Virus record (IMG/VR): IMGVR_UViG_3300045971_000528
Location: 1 to 64,000 of that record
Source of the DNA: a virus
DNA length: 64,000 bases
Direction: 5' to 3' (one strand)
Shown piece after piece: positions 777 to 52,134 of this stretch. Made by a program: the position numbers and the translations under genes. The number at the start of each line of letters is the position of its first letter. The first letter of the stretch is position 1. A model generated the notes under the pieces. It was given only the letters and a program-made list of their open reading frames with translations. It was not told where the DNA came from and searched no databases.

Positions 777-1445
777 ATGAAGTGTTTTCACGGATGTGGC
801 CAACAGGCGTTGTTCTTTGCGCCAACGCTGTCCCGACGAGAGAAGGCGGACGTGTGGGTCTGTGCTCGCAGAGCAGCGCAATGCCCAACCAAGATGGGGC
901 AGATCAGACAGAAGCGGTTAGACACGCTGGCTGAAGTCGATGCTGATGGTGTTGATGGCTTCACGCGCAATGCACTCGCAGTGTCTGCCTCACGTCGCCA
1001 AGAGGACGGTACTTTCAACGGTGCAGAGAAGATGGTTCAAACCAAGCGATCAACGAAAGACGCCGATGGACGTGACATCTACCAACAGACCGCCATCAAG
1101 ACCGCCATCACTCGCTTTGGTCAATACGCTGGACTGGAGGGCATGCCCGAGTTCGAGATCTACCGCTACCACGTCAAGCGCATCACCGAACAACAACCCC
1201 TGCATCTTCTTCCTAAGCATGAGAAAAGGGCCGCCTACGGTAAAGCAGACGACCCCCATCAGGTAGATCACAAATTCTCAGTGGTGCAGGGCTTCTTGAA
1301 GAACATTCCGCCCTACATCATTGGTCACATCTCCAACTTGGAGATGCTTCCATCACGCCTGAACAACTCGAAAGGGTCGTCCTGTTCGATCACGGAAGAA
1401 GCTCTGCTCGAGGGCTTCTTCTCATCGATCAGAGTTGCGCAATGA
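777..1445 (+). CDS. Putative freestanding HNH-type endonuclease
   Basis: C-terminal HQVDHKFS...GHISNLEMLPSRLNNSKG motif; N-terminal Cys cluster; TAAATA late-promoter motif at 746-751; only convincing plus-strand gene in the window. Confidence 0.6.
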   Translation: MKCFHGCGQQALFFAPTLSRREKADVWVCARRAAQCPTKMGQIRQKRLDTLAEVDADGVDGFTRNALAVSASRRQEDGTFNGAEKMVQTKRSTKDADGRDIYQQTAIKTAITRFGQYAGLEGMPEFEIYRYHVKRITEQQPLHLLPKHEKRAAYGKADDPHQVDHKFSVVQGFLKNIPPYIIGHISNLEMLPSRLNNSKGSSCSITEEALLEGFFSSIRVAQ

Positions 1446-3036
1446 GTTGCGGAGCGGCAGAGTCGAAACCTGCGATGTCCAACATTCCGGCATCCTTCGG
1501 ATCCGCGATGGTGAACTCGCTCACAGACGTTCCAATGACAATCGACTTCGCCATCGGGTTGAGCTTCTTCCGGTAATCGCGAAGCGCTTCCACCGGCTGG
1601 ATCGAACCGGCCCAAGTTTCGTTGTCGGTCAGAACAACGAACTTGTCCACCTTCATGCCGTGCTGGGAAGCATGCATCATCGGCAGAGCGCAGTCAGTGC
1701 CGCCCCACGAGAAGCGCTGCATCACCTTCAGAACCGCGTCGAGACGCATGTTCGGCGTGATCTTCAGCTCGCCCATCTTGGTGTTGAAACCACCGATCCA
1801 GTAGTTCGGCTGGTTCTTCACGACCGCGAGGGCCATGACACCAGCAACTTCTGCAGCGGTCAGGTTCGGGGAACCGTTGACGTGTGCACCAAACATGGAA
1901 CCAGAGCAGTCCACACCCACCAGGTACGAGTCATCCGTCTTCTCTTGCGTGGCAAAGGAAGCGTAGAACGCATCGTTGATGGCGTCGAGAACGCGTTGAT
2001 CAGCCTTCCAGGTCAGGGAACCCTTCTCGCCGTGACCAACGCTGTATTGCTTGAACGCCTGCAGGAGCGTGATCGGGTGGACACGCTGCTTGCGCAGGGA
2101 CTCCACGTCGCTTAGCTTCGCGATGACGTTCTTCGTACCAGCCGACAGCGGTGCGATCACGCCGTGGGCCGTCAGGGCACCCAGCTTGCGGATCGTTGCC
2201 GTCAGGCCCATGTTCACCACGAGGGCGGACAGGACATCGGCATCCTTCAGGAACTGGGTCGGAACCATTTCCCACGTGAGGTTGGAGTTGCCCTCAACCA
2301 GACGCAGAACGGTCTTCTTGTCCTCGGCACGCTTCAGGTACTCGAAGTCGACCAGCAGCTGCGGCACAGCTGCGCCTTCCGGCAGTTCACCCTTGACCGC
2401 GTAGCGGAACAGGTTCGACTGCACTTCAGACGACGGCTTCACGTGCGCCAGACGGAGCACGTCACGGTGAGCCCAGCCGTCACGCGACTGGTACTTCAGA
2501 AGCTGGAGAGCCAGCTTGTCCATTTCCTTCGACGTGTACCACTTGGCAACGCCACGCTTTGCAGCCGCGTTCCACTTGCCCATCGAGTCGAGGATCGACA
2601 CGAACATGAACAGCCAGGTGCCAGTACGAGCGATGCGTGGCAGCGCGTCGTAGGCAGCTTGCTTGGTCTCGTCGTTGCCGAACACCGCTGCGAGAGCGAT
2701 GGCCACAACAGCCGGGTCGTTCTTCGGCGCACGGCCAGCGAGCGAGTACTCGAGGGCACGGTTCACCACACGGACACCGTCAGCGGCAATGCACGCCTTC
2801 ACGGTGTTGAACGACATCTTGGTCGTGTCCTTCTTGCCGACGTAGTAGCCGGCCGACTCGGAACCCAGCGTCAGGAAGCGGTCGAGCACGCCCCACTGGT
2901 CGAGGGTGAAGGTGACACCACCTGCGTTGTTGGTCTTCATGTCAGCTTCGCGGCCCGGGATGGCACGGGACTGTGGCGTAACCGACTTGGTCGGCGACAG
3001 GGAAGCTGCGTGGGAAGTGTAGGTGTTTGCTGCCAT
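1429..3036 (-). CDS. rsr: Ro60/Rsr TROVE-domain RNA-binding protein with C-terminal vWA domain
   Basis: NNAGG..F..D....LDRFLTLGSE, KYQSRDGWAHRDVLRLAH, VDCSGSM (MIDAS), GGTDCALP, TDNETW, IADPKDAGMLDIAGFDSAAP; SD AAGGAG upstream. Confidence 0.95.
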   Translation of the reverse strand: MAANTYTSHAASLSPTKSVTPQSRAIPGREADMKTNNAGGVTFTLDQWGVLDRFLTLGSESAGYYVGKKDTTKMSFNTVKACIAADGVRVVNRALEYSLAGRAPKNDPAVVAIALAAVFGNDETKQAAYDALPRIARTGTWLFMFVSILDSMGKWNAAAKRGVAKWYTSKEMDKLALQLLKYQSRDGWAHRDVLRLAHVKPSSEVQSNLFRYAVKGELPEGAAVPQLLVDFEYLKRAEDKKTVLRLVEGNSNLTWEMVPTQFLKDADVLSALVVNMGLTATIRKLGALTAHGVIAPLSAGTKNVIAKLSDVESLRKQRVHPITLLQAFKQYSVGHGEKGSLTWKADQRVLDAINDAFYASFATQEKTDDSYLVGVDCSGSMFGAHVNGSPNLTAAEVAGVMALAVVKNQPNYWIGGFNTKMGELKITPNMRLDAVLKVMQRFSWGGTDCALPMMHASQHGMKVDKFVVLTDNETWAGSIQPVEALRDYRKKLNPMAKSIVIGTSVSEFTIADPKDAGMLDIAGFDSAAPQLIAQL

Positions 3037-3089
3037 GATGTTTCTCTCCTTTGGAATGACGGCTATCACTTGATAGCGAATGATCAAAA

Positions 3090-3386
3090 TCAACCTGTAC
3101 GACGAAAAGCGGGATCGGAGATTTCGGTCGCTACGTCGCAATGACGCGCTTCCTACACCCGTCTTGAGGCGACGAGTAACCTACCGGATTACGACCCCGG
3201 AAACATCACGCAGATTCGACGCGTAATCCCTACCTCCATGATTCGACATGGACACCTACTTCTGTGGTTCGGCACAGATACCTACTCTGCTTGTCCGGCT
3301 TGCTTTCCAACTTGCGATGGGGCACAGAGCTTCGAAGTTACAGTAGTTCGATTGTGGTAACCAATACCAACGGTCGAACAGGTTGA
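3090..3386 (-). ncRNA. Long (~300 nt) Y-RNA-like RNA with internal hairpin/GUAGG array
   Basis: 5' UCAACCUGUUCGAC-C-G pairs with 3' CGUCGUACAGGUUGA; UUGGUUACC motif; lies directly upstream of rsr. Confidence 0.7.
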
Positions 3387-10934: not shown

Positions 10935-12134
10935 TTAGTTCAGCTTCAAGATCGTCAGGTGCGCAGAGACCGAGCGAGTTCCACCTGCAAGAGGCGTGAT
11001 CGTCAGCGCTGTGGAATTCCCGGCTGGGTTCCGCACGGTCAGAATAGAGTTGATCACCGAGGTGGTGACTAGCGCGACTCCCTCAATCTGACTGGTGCCG
11101 GTTGCCCGACCAACAACTGTGTACGCCAAGTCGTTGCCGTTCAGTGTCAGAATGAGCTGGCCTGGTTCGGTGATGCTGACTTGGAACTGAACCAAGTACG
11201 TCCCGATCGTCGTCAGGCTGAATGAGCTTGCCGATAGACGAGCGATCGTTGAGCCTGAAGTAGGGCCGTTCTGCGGAAATGAAACGTCAGTGCCAACTCC
11301 AACTGTCGACGCGTTGTTCGGCGGCATCAGCGCGTAGAAGTCAGCGAATGCGATTACGCCATGCTCACTATCACCGCCAGCGGGACCCTGTGGACCTGTT
11401 GCGCCTTGAGGCCCAGCTGGACCTGTCGCTCCCTGTGGACCCGCAGGACCTGTTGCGCCAGTTGTACCTTGTGGGCCCGTTGCACCTGTTAGACCGATCG
11501 GTCCAGCAGGGCCAGTTGCCCCGTTCGTTCCGTTCGTTCCATTCTGACCTGCTGGACCTTGTGGACCCGTTGCTCCATCAGCACCTGCTGGACCTTGTGG
11601 ACCCGTTGCTCCATCAGCACCTGCTGGACCAGTTAGTCCTTGGGGTCCAGTGAGACCTTGAGGACCAATAGGACCGGCTGGACCTTGAGCTCCATTGGTT
11701 CCAGGCGAGCCAGCAGGACCTTGAGTTCCATCACGCCCGTCTCTACCATCACGCCCGTCGCGGCCATCTGTACCAGAAGGACCTTGTGGTCCAGCAGGAC
11801 CTTGTGGACCAACAGGTCCAGGTGGGCCAGGTGGGCAGATAGGTGGGCAGGGGTATACAGGAAAGCAACCACCCGGCGGCTTCCTCGGGAAGCTTTCATC
11901 GTCGTTACAATCGACTGGCGGCTTCGGCGGGCATGGGGGTTGGCCACCGCCGCCACCTACATTGCTCTCACTTGGAGCGTTCGTGATAGGTGTAAACCCC
12001 GATGAGATGATCGGTGCAGTGATGCCTGGAATGTTTGTGTCTGGGCCTGATGTAGTTTCAACAGGCGATCGAGCCTTCGCACGCGTTAGAACGTCGTTCA
12101 GCTCAATGAGGTATCGTTCAGTAGTTGCGAGCAT
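10935..12134 (-). CDS. Collagen-like protein with BclA-type C-terminal domain
   Basis: About 50 Gly-X-Y triplets (GPQGPAGA..), Pro/Cys-rich neck, C-terminal beta domain ([28 protein letters not shown]). Confidence 0.85.
11548..11619. repeat. 36-bp tandem duplication within the collagen repeats
   Basis: cctgctggaccttgtggacccgttgctccatcagca present twice in tandem. Confidence 0.8.
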
Positions 12135-12136
12135 AA

Positions 12137-12421
12137 TTACCCCTGTGCATCAAGCCTTGCGATGATTTGAGAAATTGCAAGTTCAATGGCAGCAAGACGT
12201 TCTTCAAGTCCATCGGGGCAACCCGGGCCTGGGGGTCCAGGTGGTCCGGGCGGGCCTTGTGGCCCTGGAAACATCGAACCGATGTTGATGATGTCATCTC
12301 CACTTGTAAGATAAGCACCCGCAATGTCCAGCGCTTCTAACGCACAGACCGGCCCGCTAGCTCTGCACCTTGTGAGAACTTGCGTCAACTCGATTAGCTG
12401 TCGCCCTGATGAATCTACCAT
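12137..12421 (-). CDS. Short collagen-motif protein; N-terminus paralogous to 10935-12134
   Basis: [15 protein letters not shown] vs [15 protein letters not shown]; [14 protein letters not shown]. Confidence 0.7.
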
Positions 12422-12501: not shown

Positions 12502-13428
12502 TTAACGAACTTGATTGCTCGTTGTCGTTTGGCCAACGCCTGACATGGAACCGAAGTTCACCATGCCTTGACGCGTTTCCTGCAGTTGGCTTTGGAAAGC
12601 CTGCAGTGCGCTGTTCACGGCTGCGAACTGGCTGTTGCCATGCTGGTTCTGCCAGTAGCCGCAACGATCACGCTCAGAGACGAGGGCTGCGTTACGCTCG
12701 ATGAGCTCACGGTTCAGCTGTTCCATCTTGAGTTCGTTCACGAGGGCACGTGTTGCATTGCCGTCAGCAACGATCTGTTGGCCCAGGAGAGCCGATGCGA
12801 GCTGTGTTGCAGCTGCATTCTTCGCACCTTCGAGAGCCGTCGCTGCTTGGCCGTTTTGGGCTGCGGAGTTGATGGCGCTGAGAGTGTTCGCGAACTGCAT
12901 GTCGGTACCAGCCTTGAGGGCTGCGACAGCTGTAGCGTTGTTGAACGCGTACTGTTGCTGGGCGATGAAGTACGCCGTGTCTTGAGCGACGACGCGGTCA
13001 GCTTCGGTACCAGTGCGGTCCGAATTTGCCCATGCCGCAGTCTTGACGATGTCATTCGTGTCTGCTGCTTCCTTGGCGGTCTCACGACGGATGTCAGAGC
13101 CTGAAGCCAGGGTTGTTGCACGAATTGCGCCGCTTTCGAAAGCAACATCACGACGGATGTTGGCTTCAGATTGCTGGCTCTCACGACGGATGTCAGCCTG
13201 ACCTTGGAGGTTTGCTGTTTCGTCGAGTTGGCCCGTTACGGTGCCGGTTACGATGTCTGCCATTTTGGATACCCTTTCAGTTGCAGTTTCAGCCGAAGTT
13301 GTGGCCTTGCTGCTATCATTTGAAATAATGGGCTGGACGACACTTGCTACAACTGCCGGTGCTGGTGTGATTTGTTGGCTTGTGGCCCGCAAATTCGCCA
13401 TCAGGTTGGTGTTGTCTTCGGTGAGCAT
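12502..13428 (-). CDS. Ala/Gln/Thr-rich helical protein with internal (A/S)(D/N)IRR repeats
   Basis: 308 aa ORF; ADIRRE, ANIRRD, SDIRRE repeats; start could be 13263. Confidence 0.75.
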   Translation of the reverse strand: MLTEDNTNLMANLRATSQQITPAPAVVASVVQPIISNDSSKATTSAETATERVSKMADIVTGTVTGQLDETANLQGQADIRRESQQSEANIRRDVAFESGAIRATTLASGSDIRRETAKEAADTNDIVKTAAWANSDRTGTEADRVVAQDTAYFIAQQQYAFNNATAVAALKAGTDMQFANTLSAINSAAQNGQAATALEGAKNAAATQLASALLGQQIVADGNATRALVNELKMEQLNRELIERNAALVSERDRCGYWQNQHGNSQFAAVNSALQAFQSQLQETRQGMVNFGSMSGVGQTTTSNQVR

Positions 13429-13746: not shown

Positions 13747-13898
13747 GTGTGGACTCCCTTGTGAACGGTGGTGAGCGGTGTGCTCTCAAGGGTATTTAGG
13801 CTTGCCGCTTCGTCTGTACCGTACGGTACAGACCTCAACCTACTAAGATATCAATAAGACATAGGAGGCATGTCCGGGACAGAATTCAGGTTGACACA

Positions 13899-13922
13899 GA
13901 AAAGGGCCCGAAGGCCCTTTTC
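13899..13922 (-). terminator. cUUCGg intrinsic terminator after the cytochrome cluster
   Basis: AAAAGGGCC-TTCG-GGCCCTTTT. Confidence 0.85.
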
Positions 13923-13939
13923 ATCATCGTAGGTGCTGC

Positions 13940-14665
13940 TTATGCGAGCATCTTCTGCACTGCAGTCAGTGCATACTTCAAGAGAGTGTCGTAGGCCTGA
14001 GCGCACTTGAATGCTGCACTCGTCGAGTGGCACTGCTCGCACTGGTCTACAGTCACTGGGTGACCAGCAGTGTAGGCAGCCTTGCCCTTGGCAATCACGT
14101 TGTCGTGGCAGGTGACACAACCAGAAGTGACGCCAGCGTGGATCTGGTCATGCGACACGGTGTCCCATGCAGTGATCGCGAAGCTTGAACCATTTGCTGG
14201 AGTCGTGTGGCAGGTGCCGCACTCAGCAGTTGTTGGAACGTGGTTCGTTGGCTTTGTCAGAGCGTTGTACACCGATGCGTACGTACCACCGTGGCACTGC
14301 GAGCAAGCGATGTTGCTGACTGTTGAGTGGTTCATCGACCAAGTCGTGGTGAACGACGAGGTGAAGTGGCAGTTGTTGCACTCGAGCAGACCCGTTGGGA
14401 TGTGGTTTGCTGAGCGGGCGACGGTGACTCGTGCTGGGTCACCATTGTGGCATGCTACACAGTTCTTTGGTGTTCCGAGGAACACGCCAGCCTTGTGGCA
14501 TGATGCGCACGTGTTACACTTCCCAGTCGAGAGGTGTGCTCCATCGAGCGTAAAGTTCGGGTGCGATTGCTCGTACATCGAACATTCAGCCGCATGGGCG
14601 CCAGTGGAAGCGAACATGCTTCCAAGGAGGACCACCGCGGCTGCAAGTAGTTTTTTCAAGGACAT
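13940..14665 (-). CDS. Secreted multiheme c-type cytochrome (7 CxxCH)
   Basis: Signal peptide; CASCH, CVACH, CNNCH, CSQCH, CGTCH, CVTCH, CEQCH; H(I/V)PT repeats. Confidence 0.9.
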   Translation of the reverse strand: MSLKKLLAAAVVLLGSMFASTGAHAAECSMYEQSHPNFTLDGAHLSTGKCNTCASCHKAGVFLGTPKNCVACHNGDPARVTVARSANHIPTGLLECNNCHFTSSFTTTWSMNHSTVSNIACSQCHGGTYASVYNALTKPTNHVPTTAECGTCHTTPANGSSFAITAWDTVSHDQIHAGVTSGCVTCHDNVIAKGKAAYTAGHPVTVDQCEQCHSTSAAFKCAQAYDTLLKYALTAVQKMLA

Positions 14666-14724
14666 CAGAATCTCCGTTACAAAAAGACGTCGTATTTATT
14701 GCCGGCCGCTGCTAGATACGCATT

Positions 14725-15405
14725 TTAGTTGTCCCAATTCCTGTACATCGTGCCGCGATTTCCGAGAGGCCGGTGGCACCCCACCTGTGAGCAATCGAGC
14801 GGAACGGGATTGCGTTGGAAATGCGTAAGCGACATCAACTCTCCATGACCGAGCCAAGTCTGTCCTGACAAGTGGCAGCCCTTGCACCAGCCTGCGCCGG
14901 ATCCAACGGTTCCATTGTGGTTCATCGTGACAGTAGTCCACACTGTGGTAGACGTGTGGCATGCCTTACAGTCGAGTGTTGAACCACCTAGAAGCTGCGT
15001 CGCTTCAGGGATGTGTTTGATTGGTTCGCCGAGAGCGCCAGCCCCGGTGTAGCTGCCATTGTGGCAGGTCTTGCACAACATCGTCGTCACCTTCGTGTGG
15101 CTGAATGTCGATGGCGTGAATGCGACTGTCGAATGGCAAGAGGCACAGTCCATCGTGCCGGTTGGAATGTGTGAAGCTGATCGATACACGGTGTTGCGTG
15201 CAGGATCTCCATTGTGGCAGTCGATGCAGTTCCTTGGTGTTCCGTTGAAGATCCGATTGATGTGACAAGATCCGCAGGTGGTGCACTTTCCGGTAGAGAG
15301 GTGGGCACCCGAGAGAATGTATAGTGGATGCGACTGTTCGTAGAGTGTGCACTCAGCGCCAAAAGCCGGCATGCAGAACATCAGGAGTAGAAGTATGAGT
15401 CTCAT
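14725..15405 (-). CDS. Secreted multiheme c-type cytochrome (6 CxxCH + CX4CH)
   Basis: Signal peptide; CGSCH, CIDCH, CASCH, CKTCH, CKACH, CKGCH, CSQVGCH; paralogue of 13940. Confidence 0.9.
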   Translation of the reverse strand: MRLILLLLMFCMPAFGAECTLYEQSHPLYILSGAHLSTGKCTTCGSCHINRIFNGTPRNCIDCHNGDPARNTVYRSASHIPTGTMDCASCHSTVAFTPSTFSHTKVTTMLCKTCHNGSYTGAGALGEPIKHIPEATQLLGGSTLDCKACHTSTTVWTTVTMNHNGTVGSGAGWCKGCHLSGQTWLGHGELMSLTHFQRNPVPLDCSQVGCHRPLGNRGTMYRNWDN

Positions 15406-15406
15406 G

Positions 15407-17428
15407 TTAGAAGTCGGTGCGGACGCCGAGGTAGAATGATTGGTTGTAGGAAGTCACATTCGCTGCATTCAGCAGATCAAGAAGGCTAGTGCGAGTGATG
15501 CTGAAGGCAGTGTCAAGAGCGAGCGACTCTGAGAAATAGTAGTTCAGTCGGACTGAAAGCCCTGTGTTCGTGGTTAGCAAGCCTGGTTGGGTGCGAACAA
15601 AGTATCGACCGAGAAGTTCGAAGCTCATCTGACCGTACTTGAAGTTGTCGACGACCGTGATCGAGGTTCCACGCCCACCACCGAACATGAAGCTCGTGAT
15701 GACATTCAAGTTGTTGCCCTTGTACCAAGTATCAGTGCCAGATAGCATCAAGTTCAGCGTGGTGTTCTTGCCAGTTCCAGCCTGCGAAGTGATCGAAGCT
15801 GGCAGATCGAGTGTAGAGATTTGGTCGATGCTAGTACCCGAGATGCTGGACACCTGAATGTCGGAACCGAGAGTCCACTTTGGTGTCAGTGTCGTGGTGG
15901 TGCCGAGCATGAATGTCGTGCTCATCGGTGTAGAGCCGGCGATGTACTTGTAGATCTGATCTTGCGACAGACCAGAGTTCGCGAACACATCACCTACTGA
16001 TGTGAACGGCTTCCGATCGATGGTGCCGAAGCCCAACATCGTTGAACGTTCAGCGAACAGAACAGGTGCCTTACGATGATCGATCATGAAGTACGGCGAC
16101 GTGAACCCAAGGGATGTGCGGCCCTGGAACATGAGAGTGTTCAACGCCTTGTACAACAGATCGTACTCGACAATGAGTGAGGAACTCAGCTGTTGGCTTG
16201 ATTGGAACACCTCGACACCGACAGCTTGTCGTTCTGCGTGTCCGTCAGCGATGCTGTGATTGTAGTACAGATCTCCTGAGAACTTTTCAGTGTCCAACTG
16301 GTAACCTACGCCAAAGAACTTCCGACTTGTCGACGAGGTCCCGACATAAGGCACGCCTCCCAGAAGGACAACCTTTGACTTTGGATCCATTGCGTAGTTT
16401 GCCACAATCCCATCGAATCTGCCAAGCGTGCCGTAACCCGAGGTCATACGACCGACCTTGATGCCCATGTCTCGGAAAGTGTCTTGCACGTCCACCGACA
16501 CGGTCGATAGATTCTGCTTCGACGATTCAGGGTGCATGAGGTTGTCGGTGCGTGAGTATCGAATGGCCACCTTCGTGGTGATCTCGTCTGCTCGATACGT
16601 TCCGGTGACACGACCGTTTGTAATCAGCGCGGAGTCGGATCGCTGAAAACTGGTGGCTGAGGGAGAGTTCGAGCTGATGTAGTAGTACTCAGACACTGAG
16701 GCGGCCGTCTTTGCATCGACACCTTGGTGTGGTTGTCGTGCCTCGAACCGGCTTGCGATCACCTTCGGTTGAGCAATCTCCAGTGAGATAAGCCGCTGCT
16801 GGATCCGCTTGAACTCAGGGCTGTCAGGGTACATCGTCAGGTAGAACTTGTACTCAGCCTTGGCCTTCTCGAACTTGCCTGCCTTCTCTTGTGCGAAGCC
16901 TGCGAGTTCCTGTGCCTCCATCGTGGCAGCAGTTGGTGACATCATCAAGATGGCGTTCAGCGATTCGAGTGCATCATCAGTGTCGCCGTTCTCTGCAAGC
17001 ACCTTCTTTGCCAATGCAAGCAGCTCCTCGGGTGTTCGCTTGTTGGTGATCATGACCACCTCTGGTTGCTGAGCTTCGGCTACCACGACAGTGAGAACGT
17101 TTTCACGCAGCAAGATGCGGTATGGCATGCGATGATCGAGGGTGATCACGATGCGCGTGCGGTCAGGTGTTGCGAGAACCTTCACCTCTCGAGTGTGTGG
17201 CTTGTCAAGGAATTCCTGATCACGCTTCTCTGGGCCCTTGGAGGGCAGATCTACTACGATCCGATACGGTGCTTCCAGCTCGAAAACGGTGGGCGGCCCA
17301 GCGACTGGATCAGTGAATGAGATCTTGGTGATCTCGGCATTTTCCGATGCGCGCACCACAATGCTCTGCAGAGAATTCGCACTGCAGATCGAGGTGATGA
17401 AAAGCAAAGGAAGAAGTATCCACCGCAC
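15407..17428 (-). CDS. AMIN + TPR + outer-membrane beta-barrel protein (porin partner of the cytochromes)
   Basis: Signal peptide; F.L..P.RIVVDL and TRIVITLD (AMIN); AKAEYKFYLTMYPDS (TPR); GRFDG and amphipathic strands; C-terminal YLGVRTDF BAM signal; GTG start chosen to avoid overlapping tRNAs. Confidence 0.8.
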   Translation of the reverse strand: MRWILLPLLFITSICSANSLQSIVVRASENAEITKISFTDPVAGPPTVFELEAPYRIVVDLPSKGPEKRDQEFLDKPHTREVKVLATPDRTRIVITLDHRMPYRILLRENVLTVVVAEAQQPEVVMITNKRTPEELLALAKKVLAENGDTDDALESLNAILMMSPTAATMEAQELAGFAQEKAGKFEKAKAEYKFYLTMYPDSPEFKRIQQRLISLEIAQPKVIASRFEARQPHQGVDAKTAASVSEYYYISSNSPSATSFQRSDSALITNGRVTGTYRADEITTKVAIRYSRTDNLMHPESSKQNLSTVSVDVQDTFRDMGIKVGRMTSGYGTLGRFDGIVANYAMDPKSKVVLLGGVPYVGTSSTSRKFFGVGYQLDTEKFSGDLYYNHSIADGHAERQAVGVEVFQSSQQLSSSLIVEYDLLYKALNTLMFQGRTSLGFTSPYFMIDHRKAPVLFAERSTMLGFGTIDRKPFTSVGDVFANSGLSQDQIYKYIAGSTPMSTTFMLGTTTTLTPKWTLGSDIQVSSISGTSIDQISTLDLPASITSQAGTGKNTTLNLMLSGTDTWYKGNNLNVITSFMFGGGRGTSITVVDNFKYGQMSFELLGRYFVRTQPGLLTTNTGLSVRLNYYFSESLALDTAFSITRTSLLDLLNAANVTSYNQSFYLGVRTDF

Positions 17429-17475
17429 AAGTGATCCAAGCGTGAACTGCGTCACACTATTTAAGGGATGGTATG

Positions 17476-17551
17476 TGGTACGTCCGAGTGGGTTCGAACC
17501 ACCGGCCTTCGCCTTCGGAGGGCGATGCTCTTCCAACTGAGCTACGGACGT
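17476..17551 (-). tRNA. tRNA-Arg(CCG)
   Basis: Canonical cloverleaf, UCGCC-CU CCG AA-GGCGA, encoded CCA. Confidence 0.9.
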
Positions 17552-17557
17552 ATTGTT

Positions 17558-17629
17558 TGGACCCTCCGGAGGGATTCGAACCCACGTTCCACGGCTTAGA
17601 AGGCTTGGCCCGTTCCAATCGGCGGAGAG
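17558..17629 (-). tRNA. tRNA-Arg(UCU), atypical
   Basis: Acceptor and T arms intact, loop CU UCU AA, CCA end; no 8-9 linker before the D arm and mismatched anticodon stem. Confidence 0.6.
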
Positions 17630-17630
17630 A

Positions 17631-17948
17631 TTATGGTTGTCGTTTGATCTTGTCGAGTTCCTCTTGAATGAACTGTTCTGTTGAGCGTTCATCCTTAGGT
17701 GGCTCGCACTGATGTCGAATCGATCCGAAGAAAGCTGCGATGTTCTCGCTGTTCTTGCCGAGAGTCTGCATGACCTCGACCGATGCAAACAGCATCACAC
17801 CGCAGATGATCAAATACACGAGGAACGAATTGCTCTCGTCAGGCTCCGGCAGGAACTTCTTGAATAGACCCTTCATCTTGAACACAACCGCCACCAGAAT
17901 GGCGATGGTGATGAGGACTACCCAGATTGATGTAGGAATACCGCACAT
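17631..17948 (-). CDS. Hypothetical two-TM membrane protein
   Basis: Two hydrophobic helices; ATG 4 nt after TAAATA. Confidence 0.7.
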   Translation of the reverse strand: MCGIPTSIWVVLITIAILVAVVFKMKGLFKKFLPEPDESNSFLVYLIICGVMLFASVEVMQTLGKNSENIAAFFGSIRHQCEPPKDERSTEQFIQEELDKIKRQP

Positions 17949-17969
17949 CAACTATTTATGGAGCGTTGC

Positions 17970-18137
17970 TCAGAGCGCTGCGATCTGAGCACGAAGCTCG
18001 GCGATTTGACGCGTCTTGCCTGGGACATTGATCTCGGCAGCGGACGAAGACTTCTTCTGAAGCGAGAGACGCAGTTCGGTCTCGAGGGCTTGCAGGCGCT
18101 CAGTCAGTTTGAGCTTCTTCTTGTCGGCGTTTGCCAT
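17970..18137 (-). CDS. Small coiled-coil protein (55 aa)
   Basis: MANADKKKLKLTERLQALETELRL...; GGAG SD; below the ORF-track cutoff. Confidence 0.65.
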   Translation of the reverse strand: MANADKKKLKLTERLQALETELRLSLQKKSSSAAEINVPGKTRQIAELRAQIAAL

Positions 18138-18156
18138 GATGAACTCCAGTGTTGAT

Positions 18157-18230
18157 TGGTAGGAGCACTGAGAATCGAACTCAGGCCATCCGGGTAAAAG
18201 CCGGAGACGCTGCCATTACGTCATACTCCC
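18157..18230 (-). tRNA. tRNA-Lys(UUU)
   Basis: UCCGG-CU UUU AC-CCGGA, CCA end. Confidence 0.9.
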
Positions 18231-18238
18231 ATGGAATT

Positions 18239-18363
18239 TGGTGGTGATGGAAGGAATCGAACCTCCCCTGGCTTTGGATGATAAAGATAACCAATCGCGG
18301 CCGGTTGTTTTGCAACTAAAAATGCAATCGATGTTTCCGTGCTGTCCACTACACTACATCACC
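18239..18363 (-). ncRNA. tRNA-shaped RNA with a Y-RNA-like module in place of the anticodon arm
   Basis: Acceptor GGUGAUG/CAUCACC-ACCA, normal D and T arms, ~70-nt insert with CAACCGG..UUGGUUAUC. Confidence 0.7.
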
Positions 18364-18374
18364 ATTGTTCTTTG

Positions 18375-18450
18375 TGGTGCCCCATTGGGGAGTCGAACCC
18401 CATCCCACGGACTACAAAACCGTTGTGCACTCCTCATTCACTCACGGGGC
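18375..18450 (-). tRNA. tRNA-Thr(UGU)
   Basis: GCCCCGU/AUGGGGC-ACCA; ACGGU-UU UGU AG-UCCGU. Confidence 0.8.
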
Positions 18451-18456
18451 ATTGTT

Positions 18457-29058: not shown

Positions 29059-29240
29059 CGACTGCCAAAGATTGCCGCGAGCGCGGCAAGGGCAAGGAAA
29101 AAAGCGACGATGGCCATGCGCACCAACCAAGCACCGCCAATCCAGACGCCAACGAACAGGGCCGCGTTCAGCCAGAACCCGATGAACGGGCTCAGGCATG
29201 TGAACACGATGGCGACAATGAGCATTGCAAGACTGATCAT
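29055..29240 (-). CDS. Small hydrophobic membrane protein
   Basis: 61 aa, almost entirely hydrophobic; ATGA overlap with the ligase gene. Confidence 0.6.
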   Translation of the reverse strand: MISLAMLIVAIVFTCLSPFIGFWLNAALFVGVWIGGAWLVRMAIVAFFLALAALAAIFGSR

Positions 29241-30334
29241 GGCTTCTTCATCTCGTTGGGTTTGAATTGCGCTCCAGCCCGCCAGTGTTTCTGTGTCTGG
29301 ACATGCCCTTTGCGGACGTACTTGGCGACCGAAGTCTTGAACTCGGAGTACTTGAAGGAGCTAGCCAGTCGGACCACGTAGCCCTCACGCCGCTCCCATA
29401 GTTTGTCGCAGAATGCAGAGGCATATGCAAGTGCTTCCTCGTTGAAGGGGCCGCGATACAACACCTCCACCGGCGTGACACCAAGCAGTTCGAAGTACTC
29501 GAGGGTCTCGTCCCAAGAGAGGCAGACATTTCGCTCGTTCCACAGGCTGAAGCCGAGGAAGTACGACTCAAGGTCGTAGTACGTGATCGAGTGCTGCGCC
29601 CAGAGGTTCTCACCACAGATGCGCCAGCCTTCAGGCAGATTGAAGCAGACGTTGTTGATCAGGAACTGTTTGACCCACGCACGATCTTCACCACCACGAG
29701 AGTCGATCGACCGAGCGTGTACGTGACCATCGCTGTAGCCTGACGTGTTCTCGCCGTCCATCTTCACGCTGATGATGACCTCCTTGCCGGTGCCGTCATC
29801 GTGGTAGAACTGCGAGCAGTCCTTCAGCGCCTTGTCGTCGTCATGAATGCCGGGCGAGAAGGGCAAGTGAAAGGTCCGACCGTACTTGACGTAGGCGGTG
29901 TAGAGGTCGAGCTTGCCGCCCTTACCAAGGACCTTCTGAACCGACTCGTCGAAGAACAGTTCACCTTTGGTACGACGACCATCTTCGAGGATGTAGTCGC
30001 CCCACTTGGTGATGGGCTGCTCCGGATAGAATTGGTCGGGAACCACAATGTGAGTGATGCCGGCAACTTCACGTGCTTCTTCAACCGAGATCTCGGTAGT
30101 CTCGCACAGCATGTGGTGGTCCTCACAGACCGTAACACCGTTGTCGAGGTAGTAGCCTCCATTGGACCAAAGCCGTCGTTCGATCAAGTGATGGGCGTCA
30201 AGCTTTGGAGACTCGTCAGGGCTGATCTCGTAGAACCCCATGCCATGGCGGTTGGCGCAGAACACGCAACGGTACCCGTCACGTTTGAAGACGCCTTCAC
30301 GGAAATCATCGCGGCTGAGGAGTTTTGGTTCCAT
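29237..30334 (-). CDS. HNH domain fused to an ATP-dependent RNA ligase domain
   Basis: N-terminal RDGYRCVFC..LDAHH..NGVTVCEDHH; ligase KY.RT.HLP.SPG, motif I KMDGEN, GEN, EGYVVR, AKYVR. Confidence 0.9.
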   Translation of the reverse strand: MEPKLLSRDDFREGVFKRDGYRCVFCANRHGMGFYEISPDESPKLDAHHLIERRLWSNGGYYLDNGVTVCEDHHMLCETTEISVEEAREVAGITHIVVPDQFYPEQPITKWGDYILEDGRRTKGELFFDESVQKVLGKGGKLDLYTAYVKYGRTFHLPFSPGIHDDDKALKDCSQFYHDDGTGKEVIISVKMDGENTSGYSDGHVHARSIDSRGGEDRAWVKQFLINNVCFNLPEGWRICGENLWAQHSITYYDLESYFLGFSLWNERNVCLSWDETLEYFELLGVTPVEVLYRGPFNEEALAYASAFCDKLWERREGYVVRLASSFKYSEFKTSVAKYVRKGHVQTQKHWRAGAQFKPNEMKKP

Positions 30335-46709: not shown

Positions 46710-47816
46710 TTAGCAGGCTCTTTCGTCAGGTTGCAGCATCGAGATCAGAGCACCGATGCGGGCTTGTTCGATGCCCTCACCGATTTCCTTGCCGCTCATG
46801 CCATCGGCCACGAACACGGGTGCCAGTTGAGAAGCCAGCGGTTGCGCGAGGCTGAAGCCACCCACCATTTCGCGGGCAGTGAATGTCTGCGCTGTGCCCA
46901 ACTTCGCCGCGCCGTAGCTGATCAGCGTGAACAGCTCCAGGCGCTTTTCATTCTGCCAGCCGATGCGCCGCAGCAATGCACTCAAATCGCGGGCGGTATG
47001 ATTGGCTGTGCGGTTCTGGCTGATGAACTGCGCAAATGCCCAACCTTCGCTACCGCCGACCTGCATCGAGAACGCTTGATCACTTTGCGCGATGGCTGTG
47101 AACGCCAGCACACGTTCGTCCTTGTTGAAGTTCTGGCGAACCCAACCAGCAACATCGGCGAGTCGCAAGGTGTTCATGCCGCGGAAGAAGCTGACGTGCT
47201 GGGTAACCTTCAGCTCATGCAGCATCTTGAAGAAGCGCATGCAGCCCTTGACCGTGCACGTCTTCAGCACCTTGACAATCTCGGCAGCGAAGCGCTCCCA
47301 CGGCAGCTCATTCAGCTCGCCGCGTGCGACCATTTCCTGCGCGAATAACAGCGTGACGTCAGCGACCGTGAAATCCTCGAAGCGACCGTAGAAGCGAGCC
47401 AAACGAACGACGCGCAATGGGTCTTCCTTGAAGGCACTCGACACATGGCGTAGGATGCGCTTGTTGATGTCGTTGATGCCGTCGAACGGGTCGATGAACT
47501 CGCTGGTCTCTTCGTCCATGGCGATCGCATTGATCGTCAAGTCACGACGGCCCAGGTCGTCGGCCAGCGTGACATCTTCGTCGTAGTGCACCGCGAAACC
47601 GTGGTAGCCGGCCCCCGTCTTGCGCTCCGTGCGAGCGAGAGCGTATTCTTCACCCGTCGTGGGATGCAGGAAGACAGGGAAATCGGCACCGACTTGTTCG
47701 TAGCCCATGGCCAGCATCTCTTGCGGGGATGCACCAACGACTACATAGTCACGGTCCTGGATGGAGTTGCCCATCAACAGGTCACGAACTGCGCCACCAA
47801 CGAGGTATTGTTTCAT
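46710..47816 (-). CDS. cca: tRNA nucleotidyltransferase (CCA-adding family)
   Basis: YLVGGAVRD, DRDYVVVG, EYALARTERK, RRDLTINA, EDPLRVVRLARF, ER. Confidence 0.92.
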   Translation of the reverse strand: MKQYLVGGAVRDLLMGNSIQDRDYVVVGASPQEMLAMGYEQVGADFPVFLHPTTGEEYALARTERKTGAGYHGFAVHYDEDVTLADDLGRRDLTINAIAMDEETSEFIDPFDGINDINKRILRHVSSAFKEDPLRVVRLARFYGRFEDFTVADVTLLFAQEMVARGELNELPWERFAAEIVKVLKTCTVKGCMRFFKMLHELKVTQHVSFFRGMNTLRLADVAGWVRQNFNKDERVLAFTAIAQSDQAFSMQVGGSEGWAFAQFISQNRTANHTARDLSALLRRIGWQNEKRLELFTLISYGAAKLGTAQTFTAREMVGGFSLAQPLASQLAPVFVADGMSGKEIGEGIEQARIGALISMLQPDERAC

Positions 47817-52059: not shown

Positions 52060-52134
52060 TGGTCTCTCTGGCAGGAATCGGACCTGCGTCTCAGGCTTAG
52101 GAGGCCCGCGTATTCTCCACTATACGACAGAGAG
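52060..52134 (-). tRNA. tRNA-Arg(CCU)
   Basis: CGGGC-CU CCU AA-GCCUG, ACCA end; TAAATA at 52142-52147 immediately upstream. Confidence 0.9.

Follow-up and report, generated by a model that had tools for sequence, protein, structure and literature searches.

A miniature PCC3-related barrel and multiheme cytochrome module on jumbo phages

PCC3 porin-cytochrome c gene clusters are found in Beta-, Alpha-, and Gammaproteobacteria (He et al. 2017, PMC5566968; Hoover et al. 2023, PMC10734462). They have been predicted from genomes, and their function has never been tested experimentally (PMC12442390). In the bacterial clusters matched in this work, a cytochrome of 21, 24, or 27 hemes and a second, variable cytochrome of 10-94 hemes precede the porin, and a protein of around 273-310 aa with two WxxxHx13H motifs and an SGxxG motif is also encoded. 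Because the porin, the heme counts, and this last protein all fit the published description, we regard these clusters as PCC3 (PMC5566968, PMC10734462).

Other outer-membrane electron-transfer systems are organized differently. The MtrAB, MtoAB, and PioAB systems combine a barrel of 26 strands with a cytochrome of 10 hemes. Cyc2 of iron oxidisers is a fused cytochrome-porin, in which a single polypeptide harbors one heme and a small barrel. Among the viruses, phages are known to carry auxiliary genes for photosynthesis and for nitrogen, sulfur, and carbon metabolism. The amoC-phages carry a NapC/NirT-family cytochrome (bioRxiv 10.64898/2026.06.18.733297), and Borgs and other Methanoperedens elements carry multiheme cytochromes (e.g. 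PMC13444090). A full-text literature search yielded no account of a phage with an electron-transfer device that spans the cell envelope, and no publication describing a phage module of the PCC3 type.

Here we describe such a candidate module, which consists of three minus-strand genes encoding a barrel protein and two cytochromes, cytA and cytB, framed by two TAAATA motifs and a UUCG hairpin terminator (Table 1). It lies in a stretch of 64,000 nucleotides (the window) of a 106-kb IMG/VR viral contig, G000, which CheckV estimates to represent about 29% of its genome.

Table 1. Features of the module, with window coordinates.
Feature	Position	Strand	Basis or context
Outer-membrane protein gene, 673 aa; signal peptide, AMIN, TPR, and barrel	15407..17428	-	
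AMIN domain, residues 20-117	17078..17371	-	Pfam PF11741 and structure search
TPR domain, residues 133-219, BamD-like	16772..17032	-	Pfam, NCBIfam, and structure search
22-strand beta-barrel, residues 237-673	15410..16720	-	AlphaFold2 model secondary structure
cytA, 226 aa; signal peptide, six CxxCH and one Cx4CH (CSQVGCH)	14725..15405	-	
cytB, 241 aa; signal peptide, seven CxxCH, C-terminal amphipathic helix	13940..14665	-	
TAAATA late-promoter-like motif	17458..17463	-	29 nt upstream of barrel GTG start
Second TAAATA motif	14693..14698	-	27 nt upstream of cytB ATG
Intrinsic terminator hairpin, UUCG loop, U-rich tail	13899..13922	-	Sequence and RNA fold

The initial annotation of this DNA had proposed an AMIN-TPR-beta-barrel protein with a terminal Phe, and each part of that description holds. 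The Pfam AMIN model covers residues 26-105 (E 9e-7, 29.4 bits against a cut-off of 20.5), and the domain resembles the AMIN domain of AmiC (Z 12.6) and the AMIN/B2 domains of PilQ (Z 12.1-12.6). AMIN is a periplasmic, peptidoglycan-binding type of domain. The TPR region is matched by Pfam TPR families at residues 140-213, slightly below their cut-offs (E 1e-4 to 6e-2), and by an NCBIfam BamD subfamily, also under its cut-off (E 4e-6); in structure searches it aligns with BamD at Z 12.8-13.1 and an rmsd of 1.9 A across 98 residues. The AlphaFold2 model, with a mean pLDDT of 88.6, places an AMIN-like beta domain at residues 20-117, five TPR helices at 133-219, and the barrel at 237-672, with a helical insert at residues 459-499 in a presumed extracellular loop. 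All the features of a BAM-dependent outer-membrane barrel are present: a signal peptide, 22 strands mostly above a pLDDT of 90, and a C-terminal beta-signal. The protein ends in ...GVRTDF; the G.R.DF pattern is kept and the terminal Phe is found in nine of the ten close relatives. Within the barrel motif GRQ....G.LGRFDG, residues G326, R327, G333, F338, D339, and G340 are invariant in 50 homologues. The gene begins with GTG. An alternative GTG at 17455, giving the 682-aa product of database entry P0002, was passed over for the start at 17428 because it abuts the TAAATA promoter motif. The upper limit of the unit, originally placed at 17463, is the end of that motif, and the coding sequence ends at 17428.

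The model of the barrel protein matches the barrels of 22-strand TonB-dependent transporters at Z 17-18, and Foldseek gave generic barrel matches and nothing more specific. Sequence searches of the PDB yielded only TPR repeats and weak cytochrome matches (E >= 0.015), no PHROGs family was found for the module, and tblastn against INPHARED phages gave no match to the barrel or cytB. The closest metagenome proteins (P0003-P0011) are 33-54% identical, and whether they are of phage or bacterial origin is undetermined.

The two cytochromes, previously read as secreted paralogues with 7 and 6+1 heme motifs, have exactly this composition. Both exceed the cut-off of Pfam Cytochrome_C7, and the four-heme N-terminal half is invariant between them. 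Each has the features of a c-type multiheme protein, namely a Sec signal peptide, CxxCH motifs, and conserved distal His residues, from which covalent heme binding is inferred. The seven CxxCH motifs of cytB, along with six additional His residues, are invariant among 15 homologues at around 50% identity. The AlphaFold2 monomer model of cytB was unusable (pLDDT 42.5). Besides cytA and cytB, no ORF with two or more CxxCH motifs was found in the 106-kb record.

A relationship to PCC3 is evident in all three proteins. An HMM built from the phage barrel together with its close relatives matches PCC3 porins (E 1e-82 to 1e-149) along positions ~25-572 of the 572 in the profile, so that the homology extends over the TPR and the entire barrel region; it finds matches in 31 of 301 genomes in the family of a Methylophilaceae MAG and in at least 401 metagenome loci. 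At residues 60-225, cytA shows 47-57% identity to the last ~170 aa of the variable PCC3 cytochromes and has their tail motif GWCKGCH...DCS..GCHRPLG..G..Y..W, including the Cx4CH, whereas cytB matches the first ~200 aa of these proteins as well as their internal repeats. The two genes are paralogues that have been cut down from a variable, or "extracellular", PCC3 multiheme cytochrome, cytA keeping the four-heme head and the conserved C-terminal tail and cytB the head and one three-heme repeat.

In other respects the phage module departs from PCC3. The many-repeat "extracellular" cytochrome, with a median of 34 hemes, is absent; what is a 10-94-heme protein in bacteria has collapsed to 6-7 hemes and is split over two genes. 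The barrel protein has an AMIN domain at its N-terminus, and the module resides on a T4-like jumbo phage behind late-promoter motifs. On the G000 fragment, no motif or protein match was obtained for the PCC3 inner-membrane protein (~300 aa, five helices, two WX3HX13H motifs, SGXXG), and neither the 21-27-heme periplasmic cytochrome nor ccm genes were found there. With the inner-membrane protein and the periplasmic cytochrome both missing from this contig, the connection to the host inner membrane remains unspecified. Some related phages do keep a shortened inner-membrane protein of 145-158 aa with both WxxxHx13H motifs (G002, G305, G307, and G308), either adjoining the module or elsewhere, and no match to it was obtained in the complete genome G306. 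In phylogenetic trees, the phage module forms a separate, fully supported clade (SH-aLRT 100) that falls inside or beside the bacterial PCC3 porins. The node linking it to particular bacterial porins is unresolved, and no host was assigned from it.

PCC3 was among the families first suggested for comparison, and it is supported. Membership of MtrAB/MtoAB was rejected, given the absence of a family match, the 22 strands, and the non-decaheme cytochromes. MtrB_PioB was not listed in a Pfam scan at E up to 1, no Pfam or NCBIfam match to an MtrA/DmsE-family decaheme cytochrome was obtained, and the MtrC/MtrF domain scored 20.8 bits, below its cut-off of 30. Structurally, MtrB (6R2Q chain B) is only an intermediate match to the barrel model, with an rmsd of 7.2 A and a Z of 13.2 that is lower than for the 22-strand transporter barrels. 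The general plan is nonetheless similar: an outer-membrane barrel is paired with a multiheme cytochrome of the periplasm that is small yet can reach across the barrel, and a large surface cytochrome is not required, as is also true of MtoAB and PioAB; the phage barrel protein differs by its added periplasmic AMIN and TPR domains. Cyc2 is likewise a minimal outer-membrane electron-transfer device, but it showed no homology to the phage module in Pfam and NCBIfam family scans. The amoC-phages and Borgs offer a parallel in carrying host-type respiratory heme proteins as auxiliary genes of large mobile genomes; theirs, however, are single inner-membrane or archaeal cytochromes, none of which has been described with an outer-membrane barrel partner.

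The module is preceded by late-type promoter motifs of the phage itself. Both TAAATA motifs reported upstream of the barrel and cytB genes were found, and the window as a whole contains 32 copies against 4.0 expected, an eightfold enrichment that none of 100 shuffles reached. All but one of the 32 lie on the coding strand, usually 20-30 nt ahead of a start codon. The motif resembles the T4 late promoter, TATAAATA. No sigma-70 promoter was found within the unit by a consensus scanner. The cytA gene is translationally coupled to the barrel gene, its start codon lying 1 nt past the barrel stop (TAA-C-ATG), and the cytB ATG is preceded at 8 nt by GGAG. The UUCG terminator said to close the unit was also confirmed: the hairpin AAAAGGGCC-UUCG-GGCCCUUUU, 15-40 nt past the cytB stop, folds with a dG of -19.5 kcal/mol (z -4.3), and none of 200 shuffles folds as well. 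The consensus scanner missed it, since its rule lets A/U pairs consume the U tail.

The source contig is a fragment of a jumbo phage with T4-like relatives. It encodes 27 tRNAs, a Ro60-like protein, an RNA ligase, a CCA-adding enzyme, and collagen-like tail-fibre genes, and viral records G002 and G003 share other genes with it, along with part of the gene order flanking the module. The G000 fragment gave no match to Gp23 or terminase, and Terminase_6N (PF03237) had no match in four viral records. A T4 Gp23-type capsid gene is present in every one of the six module-bearing records that yielded a match; it is found in G004 and in all five of the large module-bearing records. One of the latter, G306, is a genome of 369,145 bp with terminal repeats, 100% complete, that carries both the capsid gene and the module.

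The module recurs widely among such phages. Scanning viral sequences with a single barrel sequence gave zero matches; the counts given here come from alignment-based scans. In IMG/VR, 21 loci on viral contigs carry it, with ~13 distinct barrel sequences. The usual order is barrel, cytA-type, and cytB-type gene, although in some phages the barrel is accompanied by a cytB-type gene alone, and G306 has only the barrel and one heptaheme cytochrome. A barrel and a cytochrome are paired in 20 of the 21 loci, that is, in every locus where the barrel region is present. One bacterial chromosome, the Methylophilaceae MAG, bears the same mini module. With dN/dS values of 0.05-0.23 among phage copies (0.05-0.2 for cytB), the module has been conserved by purifying selection in many related phages.

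We consider it probable that this is a miniaturised, phage-borne PCC3 derivative that acts as an outer-membrane electron conduit. Of the porin-cytochrome conduit originally proposed, the homology of barrel and cytochromes to PCC3 is established, whereas heme binding, assembly, and electron transfer are all still inferred, there being no experiment on either PCC3 or the phage module. Late in infection, all three proteins would be exported by the host Sec system, the cytochromes would receive their hemes from the host Ccm system, and the barrel would be inserted by the host BAM machinery through its terminal-Phe beta-signal. Reliance on the host for cytochrome c maturation, already suspected, is required, because no CcmC/CcmF-type genes (PF01578) were matched in the five phage records searched. 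The AMIN domain may tether the barrel to peptidoglycan while the TPR domain provides a periplasmic docking platform. A chain of 6-7 hemes, ~60-70 A in length, could then lie in or at the 22-strand barrel, much as MtrA does in MtrB. Electrons would thereby have a short route through the outer membrane, linked to periplasmic carriers of the host. Electrons might be taken from, or dumped onto, extracellular iron or humic substances, sustaining the redox and energy metabolism of the infected cell during virion production; the direction is left unspecified. Which cytochrome occupies the barrel is unclear, as some phages have only a cytB-type protein and yet it is cytA that bears the tail shared with PCC3. 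Late expression is also odd timing for a metabolic device, and counts against the conduit. On the further proposal that a T4-like jumbo phage lineage evolved and kept its own minimal PCC3-derived conduit, comprising a 22-strand barrel, a 6-7-heme cytochrome, and sometimes a halved di-heme inner-membrane protein, in a mostly phage-borne clade, our judgment is evenly divided.

Such a conduit, if real, would be the smallest natural porin-cytochrome wire known, and infection by these viruses would directly change how electrons are exchanged outside the cell, including iron and humic redox cycling, in natural waters; a functional module would give viruses a direct influence on iron and humic redox chemistry. 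The phage module is a naturally minimised version of PCC3, a system that is widespread but untested. Its three small genes, or four in relatives that also have the mini inner-membrane protein, should be far easier to express and solve than proteins of 27 to 94 hemes, and could make PCC3 function directly testable or serve as a compact component in bioelectronic engineering. The dissection into cytochrome head, repeat, and tail, and into peptidoglycan-binding and TPR domains of the porin, gives rise to concrete hypotheses on PCC3 assembly.

The same sequence evidence would apply to a module that is redox-active without conserving energy, either a surface ferric reductase that acquires iron for the iron- or heme-demanding enzymes of the phage, or a safety valve for reductant, metal, or oxidant in the periplasm. 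Late timing suits a short-lived helper of this kind more than a respiratory rebuild, and the barrel with one heptaheme cytochrome in G306, where no inner-membrane protein was matched, fits a device that draws on any periplasmic reductant available. We nevertheless judge it unlikely, as the shortened inner-membrane protein kept by relatives points to a defined inner-membrane connection and no iron-uptake genes were seen adjoining the module.

It is improbable, in our estimation, that the barrel is instead a channel for secreting or anchoring surface cytochromes, for mineral adhesion or cell contact, with the cytochrome placed much like an autotransporter-like tail within it and no transmembrane conduction. 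In bacteria, the cytochromes that partner this barrel family have up to 94 hemes, too many for the interior of 22 strands, the conserved C-terminal tail of these is the part that cytA retains, and the TPR domain is BamD-like. Phages without cytA, however, retain the barrel and cytB, and a heme chain held in the barrel would still conduct, so that this possibility overlaps with the conduit that we favor.

Outer-membrane proteins for exclusion are commonly phage-encoded, and the module is close to tail-fibre-like genes, both of which would suit a non-redox role in outer-membrane remodelling, receptor masking, or superinfection exclusion, with the cytochromes as incidental passengers. Passengers would hardly be expected to keep seven heme motifs and distal His residues invariant in phage copies only ~50% identical, to show the low dN/dS of cytB, or to accompany the barrel so consistently, and this role is highly improbable.

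Finally, the origin of the module in host DNA that entered a viral contig by mis-assembly or mis-binning, or as a decaying relic, is so very unlikely as to be almost negligible, the initial annotation having also argued against host contamination, because despite the lack of a detected capsid or terminase gene on the source fragment and the mini module on the Methylophilaceae chromosome, the module is present at 21 viral loci, including a complete genome with terminal repeats, its large relatives encode Gp23, two of its genes follow the phage's own promoter motif, its GC content is uniform across the region, other viral records have some of its flanking genes in common with it, it is under purifying selection, and its clade is cleanly apart from bacterial PCC3 porins.

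Three adjoining minus-strand genes make up the module, just as the initial annotation had described them, and they encode a barrel protein and two cytochromes, cytA and cytB. The AMIN-TPR-beta-barrel architecture with a terminal Phe that had been read from the sequence is borne out by Pfam, by an AlphaFold2 model and by the C-terminus. Pfam places an AMIN domain at residues 26-105 (E 9e-7, passing the cut-off) and TPR repeats at residues 140-213, the latter slightly below the cut-offs. The model, for which 50 homologues served as input and which has a mean pLDDT of 88.6, consists of a signal peptide, a beta-sandwich (residues 20-117), five TPR helices (133-219) and 22 strands (237-672), with a helical insert (459-499) in an expected extracellular loop. 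When the model was compared structurally against all of the PDB, the best fit for the barrel was with 22-strand TonB-dependent transporter barrels (Z 17-18, around 365 residues aligned), and MtrB gave a Z of 13.2. The TPR part resembles BamD (Z 13, rmsd 1.9 Å) and the N-terminal domain the AMIN domains of AmiC and PilQ (Z 12-12.6).

Coordinates of the module and associated features (L-numbers are loci extracted around homologues; all other positions are those of the window)
Feature	Position	Strand	Description
Barrel gene	15407-17428	-	GTG start, 673 aa, C-terminus GVRTDF
cytA	14725-15405	-	226 aa; six CxxCH and one CSQVGCH
cytB	13940-14665	-	241 aa; seven CxxCH
308-aa protein just past module terminator	12502-13428	-	Ala/Gln/Thr-rich, coiled-coil appearance
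Two collagen-repeat (G-x-y) proteins	10935-12134, 12137-12421	-	larger matches tail-fibre PHROGs, E 1e-40
27 tRNA genes	17476-23732 (-) and 52060-52134		26 in one array directly upstream of module
RNA-repair/handling set, three genes	1429-3141, 29237-30334, 46710-47816	-	
Halved inner-membrane protein	L002:12913-13350 (+); L112:2645-3121; L124:6682-7152; L128:1492-1941		
Mini module of Methylophilaceae MAG	L005:7789-8340 and 13765-14409		order cytB-type, barrel, 5-heme cytochrome

The two cytochromes had been proposed to be secreted paralogs with 7 and 6+1 heme motifs, and these counts hold. Both carry Sec-type signal peptides without a lipobox, and both share an invariant four-heme N-terminal half that opens with AEC.YE..HP. 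The start codon of cytA lies 1 nt past the barrel stop codon (TAA-C-ATG).

The initial annotation had also suggested a search for PCC-type porin-cytochrome clusters, and a profile built from the barrel and the nine relatives closest to it indeed matches PCC3 porin loci, with hits in 31 of the 301 genomes of the family to which a Methylophilaceae MAG belongs and in at least 401 metagenome loci. In the bacterial loci the barrel gene encodes 720-840 aa and is preceded by a cytochrome with 21, 24 or 27 CxxCH motifs as well as by a second cytochrome with anywhere from 10 to 94; these loci also encode a protein of 273-310 aa in which SGxxG lies between two WxxxHx13H motifs. As published (PMC5566968, PMC10734462), PCC3 has four parts: the porin, an "extracellular" multiheme cytochrome that varies, a periplasmic cytochrome with 21-27 hemes and an inner-membrane protein of five helices. 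The matched bacterial loci, judged by their sequences, fit this description exactly. The function of PCC3 is still unverified (PMC12442390). The cytochrome maturation genes ccmABCEFGH are often found downstream of the cluster in this family, and in loci L018-L026 (for example L020:3691-9353) the full set directly follows the porin gene. The variable cytochrome of these loci harbors up to 68-74 CxxCH motifs, and that of metagenome locus L092 harbors 94. The peptidoglycan-binding domains that precede the TPR differ among PCC3-family porins; many bacterial ones have SPOR (PF05036), and AMIN is found instead in this phage, in phage locus L125 (3959-5962) and, by alignment, in two metagenome homologues, P0003 and P0005. 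The PCC3 publications consulted say nothing of a TPR in the porin, with no occurrence of the term in PMC10734462.

The relationship extends to the cytochromes. Residues 60-225 of cytA are 47-57% identical to the last 170 or so residues of the variable PCC3 cytochrome, and the tail GWCKGCH...DCS..GCHRPLG..G..Y..W, in which the Cx4CH motif lies, is common to both proteins. The first 200 or so residues of the variable cytochrome match cytB, and positions ~93-225 of the cytB profile match its internal repeat many times. By these alignments cytA and cytB each consist of parts of the variable PCC3 cytochrome, head plus tail in cytA and head plus one repeat in cytB. Among systems of the PCC3 kind, the module is a derived and incomplete member. 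In the porin trees the phage barrels form a clade, the mini clade, together with one bacterial copy and nine metagenome proteins whose origin is unknown, and the branch between it and the canonical PCC3 porins has an SH-aLRT support of 100. The bacterial copy lies on the Methylophilaceae MAG chromosome JABFRO010000001.1, flanked by transposase genes, and this MAG gave the only full-length mini cytochrome found among the 301 genomes of its family. It may reflect transfer between phage and bacterium. This locus, the only mini module found on a bacterial chromosome, sits between IS200-like and DDE transposase genes, and the genes around it are those of an ordinary chromosome (pilin, ammonium transporter, cyclic glucan synthase).

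The source record, whose bases 1-64000 form the window, is a 106,081-bp IMG/VR virus, estimated by CheckV to be around 29% complete, and no capsid or terminase gene was found on this fragment. The tRNA array, the RNA-repair genes and the collagen-like tail-fibre genes nevertheless give the record itself a phage-like appearance. A search with the cytochrome alignment recovered 21 module loci on IMG/VR viral contigs, which amount to some 13 distinct barrel sequences since several loci are near-identical. The barrel gene is followed by cytochrome genes in 20 of these loci (barrel, cytA-type, cytB-type in 16; barrel and cytB-type only in four), and in the remaining one, cut by the contig end, only a cytochrome is present. 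A major capsid gene of the T4 Gp23 type is present in all five large module-bearing records, one of which, G306, is 369,145 bp long with direct terminal repeats and rated 100% complete; a sixth record, G004, also has a Gp23 match (E 1e-131). Two related records, G002 and G003, have further genes in common with this one and preserve the succession gene X, barrel, cytochromes, collagen-like fibre gene; in G002 a homolog of the larger collagen-repeat protein occupies the corresponding place downstream of the module. The least saturated phage pair has dN/dS values of 0.13 (barrel) and 0.07 (cytB), within an overall range of 0.05-0.23, from which the phage copies are inferred to be under purifying selection. 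Given this recurrence, the shared neighbors and the selection, host contamination, which had been argued against from the outset, is very unlikely to be the source of the module, as are chimerism and decay.

The expression signals first noted in the sequence, two TAAATA motifs and a UUCG terminator closing the unit, both stand up to analysis. The window contains 32 copies of TAAATA where 4.0 would be expected, a count reached in none of 100 shuffles; 31 of the 32 copies are on the coding strand, usually 20-30 nt upstream of a start codon, a pattern like that of T4-type late promoters (TATAAATA). Within the module, copies lie 29 nt upstream of the barrel start and 27 nt upstream of the cytB start. 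Downstream of cytB, the hairpin GGGCC-UUCG-GGCCC with a U-rich tail folds with a dG of -19.5 kcal/mol (z -4.3). A search of the unit for sigma-70-like promoters gave none.

Neither the 21-27-heme cytochrome nor a match to the PCC3 inner-membrane protein was found in the 106,081 bp, or around 29% of the genome, that is available here, and the complete genome G306 likewise has no match to the inner-membrane protein. Some related phages encode a halved version of 145-158 aa, roughly half as long as its bacterial counterpart, with both WxxxHx13H motifs. It adjoins the module in G002, G305 and G308, its start overlapping the end of the cytB-type gene in G002, and lies away from the module in G307. 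CcmC and CcmF are absent from all five phage records searched, so heme attachment must fall to the host, in keeping with the dependence on host cytochrome c maturation originally inferred.

We infer that the host Sec system would export the three proteins, host Ccm would attach the hemes and BAM would insert the barrel, with the AMIN and TPR domains in the periplasm because an even-stranded barrel has a periplasmic N-terminus. A chain of 6-7 hemes in or at the barrel could then offer a short route through the outer membrane, with carriers of the host periplasm feeding it, although the direction of the electrons and any extracellular partner are unknown. Which cytochrome might occupy the barrel remains open: cytA carries the PCC3 tail and is predicted to be translationally coupled to the barrel gene, but barrel plus cytB forms the universal core of the phage loci. 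The inferred working is like that of MtoAB/PioAB, but the module is no member of that family. Multiheme cytochromes have been described in the literature for amoC-phages and Borg-type elements; a full-text literature search found no description of a phage porin-cytochrome module.

Elsewhere in the record, the 308-aa protein has no match in Pfam or PHROG. Three proteins make up the RNA-repair set: one Ro60-like and RNA-binding (phrog_850, E 3e-67), one an RNA ligase (phrog_24030, E 5e-127) and one a CCA-adding enzyme, or tRNA nucleotidyltransferase (phrog_2244, E 3e-90). The N-terminal 90 or so residues of the ligase have matches to HNH endonuclease families as well. Several tRNA genes are long for their type, namely Glu (89 nt, 21852-21940), Gln (89 nt, 23369-23457), Asn (95 nt, 23556-23650) and Met (83 nt, 19860-19942), and may contain introns or extra arms.
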